Of a stretch of 36,533 nt of DNA, positions 1,400-7,159 are shown in pieces (position 1 is the first letter of the stretch; every line of letters begins with the position of its first letter). Position numbers and translations under genes: made by a program. Origin of the DNA: a virus; the UHGV virus genome UHGV-0135234. The stretch is one strand, 5' to 3'. A model generated the notes under the pieces. It made no database searches. It worked only from the letters and a program-made list of their open reading frames with translations, and had not been told where the DNA came from.

Positions 1400-2341
1400 T
1401 TACATAGATGTTTCGTTTAATTCTTCCCGACGAACGCTGTAAACGTCGGTGGCTTTTGCCAGCAGTTCGTCATCATCTGAAAGTTTTTGTGCAATGTATT
1501 TGTAAGCCTTATCCAGTTCGGAGACAGTGCTGTAATTCATCGCTGCGCTGGTAAAGGCCATCAGCATTTCTTCTGGATCACGGCTATCCGCTTTACGCGT
1601 TTGCTCATCAGGCTTTTTCACTGGTTTAGCGTTGATCAGACTGTTCATTCCCGCAGCAGTGGTCGTTTGCGGAGTAATGTCTCGCTCAACGCGCGGTGCC
1701 GTTTCCTGTAATTCGTCTGGTGTGTAGACGCCCATGATTACGTCAGGACAGTGCAAGCGAGACCAGCGTTTTGTCGCAAGGTATGCGAGTTGTTGTTTCG
1801 GATCACTGGCCCAAAGTGTGGAGTTTCTTACCTGTGCTTGAGACAGCATTAACTCAAGCACTCGAGGTTGATCCTCGCCCTTCATGGTTGCCCATACGCG
1901 AACACCGCAGCCTTCTTCGTCTTTTAGAGTCCAGCCTGGTGCGATATATGGATTGCCGTTTTTGGATGTTTTCTCAACAAACTTACCGATCACGCGTTCC
2001 CACGGCCCGAACCACTCGTAGTTGATGCGATCTTTTGTTGGCGACATCGTTGAGATAACTGCGTTTACTAATTGGGCTTCATAACCTAGCGTGCCGTTCA
2101 CAACATGGGTTTTCTGAGCCACGGCAAACGGGTTCATTCCCCACTGCGCAGCCTGCATTGCCACGGCCATGCAATCAGCTGGTTTCCCGGCGAGGTGCGC
2201 CGGTACCGTTACGCGGCTTTGCGCCATTACCTCGGCGAATTTCATCAGTTGGTTCAAGCCGTCTGGGCTGAAAATAGTTGCAGCAGTTCCAGCGATTGCT
2301 GTGTCTACTGGTGCGTTGATGTTTACGATGTCGTTGCTCAT
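1400..2341 (-). CDS. recT: RecT-family single-strand annealing recombinase
   Basis: ORF 1400..2368; ATG at 2341 overlaps upstream stop in an ATGA junction. Sequence pattern typical of RecT family. Confidence 0.88.
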   Translation of the reverse strand: MSNDIVNINAPVDTAIAGTAATIFSPDGLNQLMKFAEVMAQSRVTVPAHLAGKPADCMAVAMQAAQWGMNPFAVAQKTHVVNGTLGYEAQLVNAVISTMSPTKDRINYEWFGPWERVIGKFVEKTSKNGNPYIAPGWTLKDEEGCGVRVWATMKGEDQPRVLELMLSQAQVRNSTLWASDPKQQLAYLATKRWSRLHCPDVIMGVYTPDELQETAPRVERDITPQTTTAAGMNSLINAKPVKKPDEQTRKADSRDPEEMLMAFTSAAMNYSTVSELDKAYKYIAQKLSDDDELLAKATDVYSVRREELNETSM

Positions 2342-3763: not shown

Positions 3764-4348
3764 TTATTGTTTATTTTTTTCGTTCTGGTTGATGACAAAT
3801 TCAATGTAACTTTCGATCTTTGCCTTCTCTGTTTCAGGTAACAATGCGTAGCGCGAGCGGTCATAGTTGATAGTCGCGGGGTCGTGCGGGTGAATCAGTA
3901 ATTCATATCCGTGACGCCCAAATGCGGATGCAACATTCTCCAGGGTGGAAATGGAAACGCTGACCTCATTGTTTAACAGGCGGCTGATTGTTACCTGGGC
4001 GACGCCGGATGCGCGGTGAAGTTTTCCCTGCGTTGAAAGGTCGCGGCTTTCGCTCATCCAGCGTTCCAGGTTGTGAGCCGCCAGTTGACCAATGTCGCTT
4101 GGTCCGACAGGCTGAAAACCTTCCTGAGAAAGCGAGCGATCGATATCAAGCCAGTTACGGGGTTTATTGGCGGCAGCTTCAATTTTTCGCGCAACCTGGT
4201 CGCCGATAACCTTCTTGCCAAGAGCCCAGCGGTTTACCAGATTTGCCTGAGTTCCAAGTTTTTCAGCCATCCGCGTCTGAACACCATTGAATTCACGGTC
4301 GATCAAGTCGTTGAGATTTTGCCTGCGGACGTCCTGGATACTTTTCAT
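3764..4348 (-). CDS. phage immunity repressor (CI-like, two HTH domains, no S24 peptidase domain)
   Basis: 194 aa; N-terminal HTH (QTRMAEKLGTQANLVNRWALGKK) and second HTH (RASGVAQVTISRLLNNEVSVSISTLENVA); no LexA-like autocleavage domain; divergent from Cro-like gene with operators between. Confidence 0.75.
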   Translation of the reverse strand: MKSIQDVRRQNLNDLIDREFNGVQTRMAEKLGTQANLVNRWALGKKVIGDQVARKIEAAANKPRNWLDIDRSLSQEGFQPVGPSDIGQLAAHNLERWMSESRDLSTQGKLHRASGVAQVTISRLLNNEVSVSISTLENVASAFGRHGYELLIHPHDPATINYDRSRYALLPETEKAKIESYIEFVINQNEKNKQ

Positions 4349-4403
4349 TTTCTGGAAAATCGCCTCATATCTGAATCAGAAGATGATTCAATTTAAAGCA
4401 ATA

Positions 4404-4418
4404 TTACCCAACAGGTAA
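4404..4418. promoter_or_regulatory. operator palindrome TTACC-N5-GGTAA (OR region)
   Basis: ttacccaacaggtaa in divergent repressor/cro intergenic region. Confidence 0.6.
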
Positions 4419-4451
4419 ATGCACCTCATGGGTAACTATCCTTGATTTTTG

Positions 4452-4466
4452 TTACCTTATAGGTGA
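4452..4466. promoter_or_regulatory. operator palindrome, imperfect (TTACC-N5-GGTGA) (OR region)
   Basis: ttaccttataggtga; lies in spacer of putative pR (-35 TTGATT 4442..4447). Confidence 0.45.
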
Positions 4467-4502
4467 ATATTTATTATCTGAAATAAATATCAGGCAATAG
4501 CT

Positions 4503-4733
4503 ATGAGCGATAACGGACATTTCGATTTCAAAAAGCACTGGCTTGCACTTACTCCGGATGAGCGTGAAGCCTTCGCACAGGAAGCCGGAACGACGAGTCA
4601 CTATATCCAGACTCACTTAACAGGTAAGCGCAAAATGCCAGGTAAGGTATTGATGAATGGGCTTTTTAAAGCCTGTAAATCAAGACAATGGCTGCGCTCA
4701 AAAGCAGAACTGGCATACTTCTTCTACTCATGA
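4503..4733 (+). CDS. Cro-like HTH regulator
   Basis: 76 aa, first rightward gene from immunity region; HTH around EREAFAQEAGTTSHYIQTHL. Confidence 0.6.
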   Translation: MSDNGHFDFKKHWLALTPDEREAFAQEAGTTSHYIQTHLTGKRKMPGKVLMNGLFKACKSRQWLRSKAELAYFFYS

Positions 4734-4755
4734 TATCCAGCCGCAACCCTCTGTA

Positions 4756-4780
4756 GACCGCCATCCGGCGGTCTTTTCAT
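4756..4780 (+). terminator. rho-independent terminator (tR1-like) after cro-like gene
   Basis: gaccgcc-atcc-ggcggtc 7-bp stem followed by TTTTC. Confidence 0.6.
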
Positions 4781-4883
4781 ATCTATTCGCACCTCAAAGG
4801 TAATAAAAAACCAAATCTGGTTGATCTTTTTTTTGTGTCAGCACAAAATGACCGTAATCCCAATACTAATAACAGGGCTTACC

Positions 4884-5084
4884 ATGGAAATCATTACACG
4901 TATTGATGCCGCAAAGCGCGGACTTAAACGCTACTACACCGGAAAACCATGTAAGCACGGACATGACAGTGAACGCTGGGTTTACAACGGACACTGCGTT
5001 GAGTGCACCATGGAATCAAACCGTCGCATCAGGGCAGAGATTAAGCAGATCATGATTAATTCCTCCCCACAACATTCAAGCTGA
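4884..5084 (+). CDS. small zinc-ribbon protein (C-x-H-x-H...C-x2-C)
   Basis: ORF 4821..5084; ATG at 4884 (MEIITRIDAAKRGLKRYYTGKPCKHGHDSERWVYNGHCVEC...); function unknown. Confidence 0.5.
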   Translation: MEIITRIDAAKRGLKRYYTGKPCKHGHDSERWVYNGHCVECTMESNRRIRAEIKQIMINSSPQHSS

Positions 5085-5099
5085 TAGCGGAGATTAATC

Positions 5100-5915
5100 A
5101 TGAGCAGACATGCAACAGATTGGGCCTGGGAGACAGATCCAGGTAGCTCGTCATTAAAGCTCATACTGCTTTCGATGGCTGACAGAGCCGATGAATATAA
5201 CCTCTGCTATCCCAGCATAGAACGCCTCGTTAAAGACACTTGCCTGAATAAAAAAACCGTACAGGCCGGGCTTATATCGCTCATGAAAATGGGGCTTATT
5301 TCAGATACCGGAGAGAGAAAGGGAGCGACGAAAAGAGTGCGGGTTTTCTCTCTTAATATAACCAAAAACGGGAACATTAAAGGCAACCGGGAGGGGGGCA
5401 ATGAACCCGAAAACGGTAATGTTACCGAAAACGGGAATATACCCAAAAACGGGATGTTGAATGATCCCAAAAACGGGATGTTGAATGATCCCAAAAACGG
5501 GATCCAGAACCAGTCATATAACCAGTCATTTAACCAAGAGAGGGAGAGCAGGACAAAAAACGGGGATTCTGTGCATCATGACCCCAGCGCAAACAACGCC
5601 GTGATGAATAACTTTGTTCCTCCTGGTGGGCCAGGGCAATTAGGCAAATTTGTCATGCATGAACAATGGCAGCCATCAGATGACTTTCTTCGGAAAAGCT
5701 CATTGCAGGGGATCTACCTGGACAGTCTGCCAACGGCACAGGAACTTGCAGAGTTCAGAATTTACTGGATGGCTGAGGGTAAGGCATACCATCAGGCACA
5801 GTGGGAGCAGAAGCTGGCAAGGCGGCTGCAGATTAGCAGACAGAAGCAATCAACATTACCTGATAACAACGTTCCGCACTGGAACAGCCCTGAAGCATGG
5901 GAGGATTTCTTGTGA
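5100..5915 (+). CDS. replication initiator, lambda O-like (HTH N-domain, iteron-encoded linker)
   Basis: 271 aa; N-terminal winged-HTH-like region; central (K/E)NG repeats encoded by DNA iterons; directly precedes P-like gene. Confidence 0.7.
   Translation: MSRHATDWAWETDPGSSSLKLILLSMADRADEYNLCYPSIERLVKDTCLNKKTVQAGLISLMKMGLISDTGERKGATKRVRVFSLNITKNGNIKGNREGGNEPENGNVTENGNIPKNGMLNDPKNGMLNDPKNGIQNQSYNQSFNQERESRTKNGDSVHHDPSANNAVMNNFVPPGGPGQLGKFVMHEQWQPSDDFLRKSSLQGIYLDSLPTAQELAEFRIYWMAEGKAYHQAQWEQKLARRLQISRQKQSTLPDNNVPHWNSPEAWEDFL
5361..5565. repeat. origin-like iterons inside O-like gene (about 7 copies, core AAAACGGGA)
   Basis: Core at 5365, 5410 (variant), 5428, 5446, 5470, 5494, 5557; two perfect 24-bp copies cccaaaaacgggatgttgaatgat at 5442..5465 and 5466..5489. 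Confidence 0.65.
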
Positions 5916-6697
5916 ACAACGTTTTTACCGCGATACAAAACCGTGACGGAGAAGCCCTTTCTCGCATGTCAGGTTATGAGCATCAGTACACCAACAATGA
6001 CAACGTGGTGAACATGTCAGCAGAGAGGCTTGTTGATGCCCTTTTCAAACAGCTGAAACAACTGTTTCCGGCGGCAGTGGTAACCAACCTGAAGACGCCA
6101 GAGCAGGAAGTCGCTGCAAAACAGCAGTGGATTGCTGCGTTTGCCGAAGGTGGGATCCGAACCCGTGAACAGGTTTCTGCTGGTATGCGCCACGCCCGCG
6201 CCAGTGAATCTCCGTTCTGGCCGTCTCCAGGGCAATTTATCAAGTGGTGCAAAGACAGCAAGATGGTTCTTGGCGTCACCATTGACGATGTGATGGCGGA
6301 GTTTCACCGGTACAGCAAGGAAAAAAGTTTATATCCTGGTGGTCCCGAAAGATTCCCGTGGCGGCATCCGGTTATGTACTGGGTCGTATGTGATACCCGC
6401 CGTGCAATGTATCAGCGCCAGCTTAGCGAGATTGAGGTTGAGAAACACGCACGCAGGCTGCTCGATGATTGGGCGAAAAAGGTGGCTTCCGGACAGCAGA
6501 TACCCGATCCGGTGATCAGCATACAGGCAAAGCCAGAGCCCATGAGTACACCTCCGGACACAGGGAGAGACGTTTACCATCCACCAGGGCGAAGTTTCGG
6601 GTGCATGCCTAACGCCGCCACCCTTGGGGGAATAACACCGGCGCAGTGGCTGATGGAGGAATACAGGCGGGGAAAGGCGGCAGGATTTATCAAGTAA
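5897..6697 (+). CDS. replication protein P-like (helicase loader)
   Basis: Clear similarity to lambda P core (FPAAVVTNL...QQWIAAFAEGGIRTREQVSAGMRHARASESPFWPSPGQFIKWCKD vs lambda FPASLANRD...RRQWVLAFRENGITTMEQVNAGMRVARRQNRPFLPSPGQFVAWCRE). Alternative GTG start at 5912 with GGGAGG SD. Confidence 0.85.
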   Translation: MGGFLVNNVFTAIQNRDGEALSRMSGYEHQYTNNDNVVNMSAERLVDALFKQLKQLFPAAVVTNLKTPEQEVAAKQQWIAAFAEGGIRTREQVSAGMRHARASESPFWPSPGQFIKWCKDSKMVLGVTIDDVMAEFHRYSKEKSLYPGGPERFPWRHPVMYWVVCDTRRAMYQRQLSEIEVEKHARRLLDDWAKKVASGQQIPDPVISIQAKPEPMSTPPDTGRDVYHPPGRSFGCMPNAATLGGITPAQWLMEEYRRGKAAGFIK

Positions 6698-6702
6698 TAC
6701 CA

Positions 6703-6722
6703 GCGCGATAGCGCATTTTTTT
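6703..6722 (+). terminator. weak terminator-like hairpin after P-like gene
   Basis: gcgc-gata-gcgc followed by ATTTTTTT. Confidence 0.35.
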
Positions 6723-6734
6723 ACGCCTCAATAA

Positions 6735-6749
6735 TTACCTGTTAGGTAA
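6735..6749. promoter_or_regulatory. operator palindrome TTACC-N5-GGTAA
   Basis: ttacctgttaggtaa upstream of internal promoter. Confidence 0.55.
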
Positions 6750-6768
6750 TAAAATATTCTAAACTCTA

Positions 6769-6797
6769 TTGATTTCGTGTCTTATGTGGTTTTTAAT
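6769..6797 (+). promoter_or_regulatory. putative internal promoter for nin-like operon
   Basis: -35 TTGATT (6769..6774), 17-bp spacer, -10 TTTAAT (6792..6797), directly followed by operator. Confidence 0.4.
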
Positions 6798-6811
6798 TAC
6801 CTCAGAGGTAA
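6797..6811. promoter_or_regulatory. operator palindrome TTACC-N5-GGTAA overlapping SD of downstream gene
   Basis: ttacctcagaggtaa; ends 4 nt before ATG 6815. Confidence 0.55.
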
Positions 6812-6814
6812 ATC

Positions 6815-7159
6815 ATGAGAAAACAGATACAGGCTCTTGGTCGACTCAAAACAGGCCAGATGAACAAAACAGAATCTGCGTATTGCCAGCACCTTGAGCA
6901 GCGTAAACGTGCAGGGGAAATAGCCTGGTATCGATTCGAGGGTATCAAGCTGCGGTTAGCTGACAACACGTTCTATACGCCAGATTTCGCTGTGATGCTC
7001 GCCACCGGCGAGATGGAACTGCACGAAGTGAAAGGTTTCTGGACCGACGACGCCAGGGTGAAAACCAAAGTCGCCGCAGATCAGTATCCGTTCCGAATCA
7101 TCGGGGTAACGGTTAAGCCAAAGAAAGCAGGTGGTGGCTGGAAAATCGAAGAGTTCTGA
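6815..7159 (+). CDS. DUF1064-like PD-(D/E)XK nuclease-fold protein
   Basis: 114 aa; FYTPDF...ELHEVKG motif pattern. Confidence 0.6.
   Translation: MRKQIQALGRLKTGQMNKTESAYCQHLEQRKRAGEIAWYRFEGIKLRLADNTFYTPDFAVMLATGEMELHEVKGFWTDDARVKTKVAADQYPFRIIGVTVKPKKAGGGWKIEEF

Follow-up and report, generated by a model that had tools for sequence, protein, structure and literature searches.

A probable replication origin inside the initiator gene of a phiV10-like temperate phage

The initiator gene and its neighbourhood

The locus lies in a viral genome of 36,533 nucleotides (UHGV virus genome UHGV-0135234), which was analysed over its whole length and is called the window here. Positions 5000-6000 of the window are 96-99% identical to Escherichia phage phiV10 and its relatives (Uetakevirus, epsilon15-like). 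From left to right, a repressor gene on the minus strand (3764-4348) is followed by a cro-like gene (4503-4733), a terminator (4755-4774), a small ORF (4884-5084) and, at 5100-5915 on the plus strand, the initiator gene, which encodes a protein of 271 aa with an HTH_36 N-domain, a variable linker and a DnaT-like C-domain. Directly downstream is the gene for a lambda-P-like helicase loader (5897-6697, plus strand), the neighbour expected of a lambda-type origin. The product of this gene was recognized through Pfam (PF06992, Phage_lambda_P, 1.5e-56), through PHROG 109 ('P-like helicase loader', 2.4e-92) and through the phiV10 annotation, and its start, either the ATG at 5897 or the GTG at 5912, overlaps the end of the initiator gene. 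A DUF1064 resolvase-like gene (6815-7159) lies further to the right. As read from this gene order, the repeats described below would be transcribed through from the early right operon, as they are in lambda. The phiV10 RefSeq record annotates no origin and no repeat at the initiator region.

We established the domain structure of the initiator by profile searches. Residues 18-67 match the winged-helix-type Pfam domain HTH_36 (1.8e-10), with conservation reaching about aa 87, and residues 184-252 match Pfam DnaT (1.1e-15), a similarity also found with PDB DnaT chains over aa 181-264 (7.7e-21). The stretch in between (about aa 88-180) is variable, and its first part, aa 88-134, is encoded by the iterons. 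Changes in length from -24 to +72 bp are tolerated in this linker among close relatives, and this length polymorphism, together with the Pfam boundaries, suggests that the linker is disordered. A single-sequence AlphaFold2 model of the 271-aa protein was unusable (mean pLDDT 37.4, pTM 0.25). As a whole, the protein matches PHROG 1032 'replication initiation protein' (1.8e-108), and it fits a PHROG 1032-type HTH_36 class characterized by the N-domain motif DTGERKGxTKRVRV, CC-N6-GG dyads and RAAYCNNNCA units.

Two family assignments were tried for this protein and rejected. The first one was the lambda O family. PHROG 391 ('replication initiation O-like') matches aa 1-157 (3.9e-19), from which the initiator is at most distantly related to that family; BLASTP against lambda O gave a best E of 0.07, which is not significant, and Phage_rep_O (PF04492), matched by lambda O itself at 5.7e-36, is absent from the Pfam matches of the initiator, which are HTH_36 and DnaT only. 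The preliminary description, made from the letters of the sequence, had named the protein O-like, and this is apt for its function and architecture but not for its N-domain, which is HTH_36 and not Phage_rep_O, nor is it borne out by BLASTP. The second was full-length DnaT: the NCBIfam model NF002770 requires 201 bits, the protein reaches 85.3, and the match covers aa 181-264 only. Close relatives carry the gene under the label 'primosomal protein I / DnaT'. Such database names are misleading, because only the C-terminal ~85 residues are DnaT-like; the label would hide an origin-binding initiator role, and we regard it as wrong in function.

Iterons and a second repeat in the linker-coding region

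The 12-nt pattern CCNAAAACGGNA has six exact matches in the array (at 5362, 5407, 5425, 5443, 5467 and 5491), all on the plus strand, and these 12-mers span 5362-5502 (141 bp) with spacings of 45, 18, 18, 24 and 24 bp. Iteron 1 (TAACCAAAAACGGGAA, 5359-5374, with its exact match at 5362) is an outlier located 45 bp upstream of iteron 2 (AACCCGAAAACGGTAA, 5404-5419). Then come iteron 3 (TTACCGAAAACGGGAA, 5422-5437), iteron 4 (TACCCAAAAACGGGAT, 5440-5455) and two copies of ATCCCAAAAACGGGAT, namely iteron 5 (5464-5479), whose arms ATCCC and GGGAT are perfectly complementary, and iteron 6 (5488-5503), the last copy, likewise with perfect 5-bp arms. The consensus in the window is xTCC(C/G)AAAACGG(G/T)Ax. 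The locus therefore holds several direct repeats, each with an internal dyad, situated between the HTH_36 and DnaT domains, both of which are features of a lambda-type origin.

A shorter core, the 9-mer AAAACGGGA, is present in five exact copies (starting at 5365, 5428, 5446, 5470 and 5494) and in two more with a single mismatch (5410 and 5557). The seven copies of the array are all on the plus strand, and no exact copy was found outside the array in the 36.5-kb window. At up to one mismatch the 9-mer has 16 matches, a number that none of 100 shuffles reached (7.7 ± 2.6 matches). Tandem Repeats Finder reported an 18-bp unit (2.8 copies) at 5405-5454, a 24-bp unit (2.6 copies, 100% identity) at 5442-5503 and a 12-bp unit (2.4 copies) at 5508-5536. 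The perfect 24-bp copies of the preliminary description are hence confirmed, and so is its translation of the repeats as (K/E)NG in the linker of the protein: in the ORF at 5100-5915 all seven cores read KNG or ENG (residues 89-91, 104-106, 110-112, 116-118, 124-126, 132-134 and 153-155), and aa 88-134 lie between the HTH_36 and DnaT domains.

The same description counted about seven direct repeats at a spacing of 18-24 bp. The array is real, yet six of its copies are well supported, and the spacing holds for the central five only, which are separated from the first and the seventh copy by 45 and 63 bp, respectively. This weak seventh copy (CAAAAAACGGGG, 5554-5565, plus strand, one mismatch to the 9-mer core) probably does not function as an iteron: 24 of 35 same-length variants from close relatives have another base at position 5560, and only one of 82 related loci matches the 12-nt pattern at this place. 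Since it is altered in most variants, we count six iterons and not seven. A degenerate copy at about 5383-5393 might have made an eighth iteron, but we rejected it, as 5386-5399 is the most polymorphic stretch of the array in close relatives. Outside the array, the exact 12-nt pattern appears once in the whole window (CCAAAAACGGCA, 1954-1965, minus strand), inside an ORF on the minus strand (1400-2368) and 3.4 kb from the array; it may be a chance match or a stray initiator site. A search for DnaA boxes returned none in or near the initiator gene and two in the window (7200 and 36451), a number within chance.

A second element begins downstream of iteron 6, at exactly 6 bp from its CC-N6-GG core, and consists of three 12-bp units (GAACCAGTCATA, TAACCAGTCATT and TAACCAAGAGAG; 5507-5542, plus strand) that were identified by Tandem Repeats Finder and family comparison and had not been singled out in the preliminary description. 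The family form of the unit is RAAYCNNNCA, with a period of 12 bp (43 pairs) or 13 bp (13 pairs), the latter of which shifts the reading frame. A pair of units is found in 54 of the 82 family loci and in no flank. In the largest class (27 loci) the first unit lies 6 bp past the nearest upstream iteron core, and nearly all homologues have CAGAAYC after the last-iteron position. The third unit is usually continued by A/T-rich DNA, for example GAATCTAAAAATA, and the mean AT content of 29 homologous loci is 0.69-0.75 at +40 to +60 from the last iteron, compared to about 0.57 elsewhere. A 23-nt pattern made of two units at 13-bp spacing gave nothing relevant in the window, because the units are spaced 12 bp here. 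phiV10 has one extra unit (QSYNQSYNQSFNQ) with respect to the window (5508-5536), so that the copy number of the second element varies among close relatives too.

The second element occupies the same position as the AT-rich unwinding tract of lambda (NC_001416; PMC7466680), and we propose that the 12-bp units mark the region of unwinding and helicase entry. An A/T-rich unwinding region beside the last iteron may be indicated by the stability of the DNA (5512-5541 ranks second among the least stable 30-mers of the initiator gene, but only at the 96th percentile of the window), by the rise of AT content in the family and by the conserved triple repeat of 12-13 bp at this place. A strongly AT-rich tract like that of lambda was not found in the gene, whose least stable 30-mers, flanking the array, reach only the 98th and 96th percentiles.

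The lack of a strong AT tract in the array, and the fact that the least stable DNA of the neighbourhood is intergenic (4464-4493 and 6747-6776, both at the 100th percentile and less stable than any 30-mer in the gene), are what one would expect if the repeats were initiator sites serving regulation only, be it autoregulation of the operon, titration or handcuffing of the initiator or exclusion of related phages, and replication started elsewhere, for example in an AT-rich intergenic region. Accessory roles are also suggested by some iterons of Stx phages that are weakly bound and yet required (PMC7466680). We nevertheless find a purely regulatory role improbable: 4464-4493 is the operator region between the divergent repressor and cro-like genes, the array is joined at a fixed 6 bp by a conserved second element and then by DNA of 69-75% AT (vs about 57%) that resembles an unwinding region, and a natural chimera in phage GF-2, described below, replaces exactly the N-domain and ori of lambda.

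Conservation and exchange of the repeats

Among close relatives we parsed 82 loci, drawn from 80 near-identical phiV10-like viral contigs together with phiV10, BP9, YDC107_2 and the window. The architecture of the window (45, 18, 18, 24, 24) is present in 60 of them, and the others carry 5-9 copies, whole units of 18 or 24 bp having been gained or lost. Iteron 1 was found in all parsed phiV10-like loci, and 481 of the 495 iteron units are one of three sequences. Among 43 same-length variants, 6 of 108 sites are polymorphic in the iteron 12-mers and 12-bp units, against 22 of 130 in the rest of the linker (Fisher p = 0.008); the 12-bp units at 5507-5542 account for 2 of 36 sites. Counting only first and second codon positions, we found 3/72 in the repeats and 18/110 in the remainder (p = 0.016; 43 variants). 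By these figures the repeats are conserved, under purifying selection, inside a linker that is relaxed as a protein.

Some records in this set are peculiar. The record of YDC107_2 (CP025713) marks the initiator gene as broken and has a spacing of 43, 19, 19, 25, 24 instead of 45, 18, 18, 24, 24, which looks like homopolymer sequencing errors in the A-tracts. Phages BP9 (PP488543, 138 kb) and PH444 (PP350014, 115 kb) are larger, unrelated phages with a phiV10-like replication module, in the case of BP9 within 3.5 kb of the end of the record; these records are possibly chimeric assemblies or contain contaminating prophage DNA.

At longer range, arrays are located at the same place in PPompW, Edwardsiella GF-2, Vibrio H20 and Acinetobacter AP22, whose N-domains share 35-50% identity. 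We then took 80 species-level genomic loci with N-domains 40-87% identical, of which 79 were usable; the family-wide statistics take these loci as they are, with shared ancestry uncorrected. Seventy of the 79 have an array, 3-10 copies long, that begins at about residue 90-100, and copies of the motif almost never occur outside it. A generic motif (CC, an A-rich N6, GG, where the search itself required CC and GG) reaches 9.76 copies per kb behind the N-domain, compared to 0.24 in the flanks. Common spacings are 17, 17, 22, 22 and 46, 17, 17, 22, 22, the first gap of 45/46 bp recurring in Acinetobacter homologues (46, 17, 17, 22, 22), and the short-short-long-long order is also seen in Acinetobacter, Vibrio and Providencia homologues. 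Spacings of 17 or 22 bp place the copies in two or three reading frames, and indeed 54 loci have the generic motif three or more times, 42 of them in two or three frames.

These data bear on the possibility that the repeats are a flexible (K/E)NG peptide linker expanded by replication slippage, in which the DNA has no role in cis. Taken by itself, the window would agree with it, as all its spacings are multiples of three and its cores are uniformly KNG or ENG, and close relatives differ by whole in-frame units, just as slippage predicts. But homologues read the same DNA motif in three frames, giving unrelated peptides: ACCCAAAAACGG, which encodes PKNG in the window, yields TQKR in GF-2 and PPompW and DPKTE in Vibrio H20, and ACCCAAAAACGGGA is frame-shifted in the same manner (TQKR in GF-2 and PPompW, DPKTE in Vibrio H20, PKNG in the window). 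With the motif in all frames across homologues, a peptide repeat cannot account for the array. Besides, the encoded peptides are not conserved family-wide even though codon positions 1 and 2 are less polymorphic in the repeats, and some family copies are in inverted orientation, their arms being retained around a TTTTT spacer, while dyad symmetry is meaningless for a peptide. We therefore regard a peptide repeat as very unlikely; by comparison of sequences, the element is constrained as DNA and not as peptide.

The family iteron has the consensus GTNCC-(R)AAAA(Y)-GGNAC (GTNCC-N6-GGNAC type). To assess its symmetry, we counted complementary arm positions in 181 units and in column shuffles. Of the two outer arm positions, one is complementary in 104 units, compared to 74.8 ± 5.1 in shuffles (maximum 91), and the other in 91, compared to 55.0 ± 5.7 (maximum 76). 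Complementarity is not above shuffles for the arm position adjoining CC/GG (69/181 vs 61.1) or for the innermost spacer positions (63/181 vs 60.9). The dyad is thus carried by the two outer arm positions and the invariant CC/GG only. That these dyads are instead nucleic-acid secondary structure (hairpins, weak antisense terminators) or sites for unrelated host proteins is hardly credible: neighbouring iteron arms (GGGAT...ATCCC) and the T-run of the next iteron do form terminator-like hairpins on the minus strand (5493-5474 and 5469-5450), but their stems have 6 pairs, 3 of them G-C, their number is at chance level (4 sites vs 2.8 ± 1.6 in shuffles), Rfam has no match to them and no family in 4400-6800 at E <= 1, and the motif co-occurs strictly with one DNA-binding domain family across many host genera, which a host site would not need.

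Exchanges between phages separate the two ends of the protein. Residues 1-135 of the Edwardsiella phage GF-2 initiator (locus 1501-2343) align with the protein of the window, including the iteron-coded stretch (47% identity, 4e-38), and its residues 137-280 align with lambda O 156-299 (62% identity, 2e-67), with a P homologue next. Judged by these alignments, the GF-2 initiator is a natural chimera, in which an HTH_36 N-domain with its iterons is fused to a lambda-O C-domain, and the HTH_36 N-domain and the repeats stand exactly where the N-domain of lambda O and ori-lambda stand. Conversely, Tyrion, SPN1S and TL-2011b have only the DnaT-like C-domain in common with the window, with other N-domains, and the iteron motif had 0, 1 and 0 matches in their loci, respectively. 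The repeats thus track the DNA-binding domain and not the C-domain, as expected for binding sites of that domain. The linkers of these three phages bear short dyad or direct repeats of their own: GTCCGCAAAGCGTCCGC...GCGGACAAAAAGCGGAC in SPN1S (locus about 1363-1410), GTAACGCAAAAAGTAACGCCAACAGCGTTAC in TL-2011b (about 1330-1360) and GGATCAG three times in Tyrion (about 1428-1450). These are probably their own origins.

The proposed origin and known replication systems

Position, anatomy and comparative evidence all favour the ori-lambda-like origin inside the initiator gene that the preliminary description had proposed. We consider it likely that 5359-5542, inside the linker-coding part of the initiator gene, is the replication origin of this phiV10-like temperate phage, and we infer that replication actually starts there. 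Dimers of the HTH_36 N-domain would bind the six dyad-symmetric iterons and assemble a nucleoprotein complex similar to the O-some. This complex would destabilise the adjoining three 12-bp units (5507-5542), and the DnaT-like C-domain would bring in the lambda-P-like loader with the host DnaB.

An origin inside the initiator gene is textbook knowledge for lambda. The iterons of lambda, as read from NC_001416, are ATCCCTCAAAACGAGGGA and variants, and like those of the window (ATCCCAAAAACGGGAT) they are direct repeats with an internal dyad and a central A-tract. In both phages it is the part of the initiator gene coding for the interdomain linker that contains the repeats, a gene for a P-type loader comes next, and the GF-2 chimera suggests that the two arrays are functionally interchangeable modules. 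The differences are nonetheless clear. The initiator of the window has an HTH_36 N-domain in place of Phage_rep_O, and its C-domain is DnaT-like; there are six iterons where lambda has four (18-19 bp); the TCCC/GGGA arm cores are 3 bp closer (a 16-bp unit vs a 19-bp one); and the A/T-rich tract of ~40 bp is represented in the window by three 12-bp units of moderate A/T content.

Iteron plasmid origins of the RK2 oriV type contain repeated 13-mers in their unwinding element. They resemble the window in that an array of iterons is directly flanked by a few tandem units of 12-13 bp, and they differ from it in that the origin of the window would lie inside a coding sequence and belong to another initiator family, the role of the 12-13-mers in the window being itself an inferred one.

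Among phages, the Stx phages 933W and P27 have six iterons in gene O, four of lambda having been replaced, and a lengthened O linker (PMC7466680). As in the window, there are six iterons, their number varies between relatives and each extra iteron adds residues to the linker (PMC7466680). Stx phages differ in having true lambda O homologues and lambda-type iterons, and binding and plasmid replication have been shown for them, whereas the window is known from sequence. HTH_36 proteins have been listed in replication units of Stx phages, without an origin analysis (PMC8951638). Closer in terms of the initiator are the Acinetobacter Obolenskvirus phages (AP22, Brutus and Scipio), in which repeats in the middle of the replication-protein gene were suggested in silico as the origin (PMC10888812), in a paper that gives no motif, dyad, spacing or cross-family analysis. 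AP22 shares the N-domain family with the window (HTH_36, 40% identity over aa 1-147) and has related repeats at the same position, but it has another C-domain and the next gene encodes a DnaB-like helicase and not a P-like loader. Our literature search returned nothing on the origins of phiV10 or epsilon15, the genome papers of both phages lying outside the search, and no origin, binding or replication experiment for this HTH_36 initiator family; nor did it return an earlier description of the family-wide spacing pattern and the 12-13-bp units.

The arrangement of array and RAAYCNNNCA units extends from enterobacterial phages to prophages of Acinetobacter, Vibrio, Pseudoalteromonas and Desulfovibrio. 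More tentatively, we propose that both elements could form a widespread, uncharacterised class of bipartite origins tied to one HTH_36 N-domain, with a conserved spatial code (an outlying iteron, a short-short-long-long spacing and a fixed 6-bp step to RAAYCNNNCA), in which the 12-13-mers might be sequence-specific sites for single-strand binding or helicase entry, like DnaA-trios or the 13-mers of RK2, and not merely easily melted DNA.

The general picture drawn from lambda is unchanged by these results: the arrangement is the expected one, but with an initiator family different from lambda O. A probable origin can now be placed for phiV10 and other Uetakevirus-like phages, which are used as reporter and typing phages of E. 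coli O157. For hundreds of prophages with this HTH_36 N-domain, CC-N6-GG dyads followed by RAAYCNNNCA units provide a simple rule for finding the origin. As for unwinding, a phage origin may contain a sequence-specific element for this step, and the 12-13-bp units, whose distance to the last iteron is fixed, are a concrete candidate.
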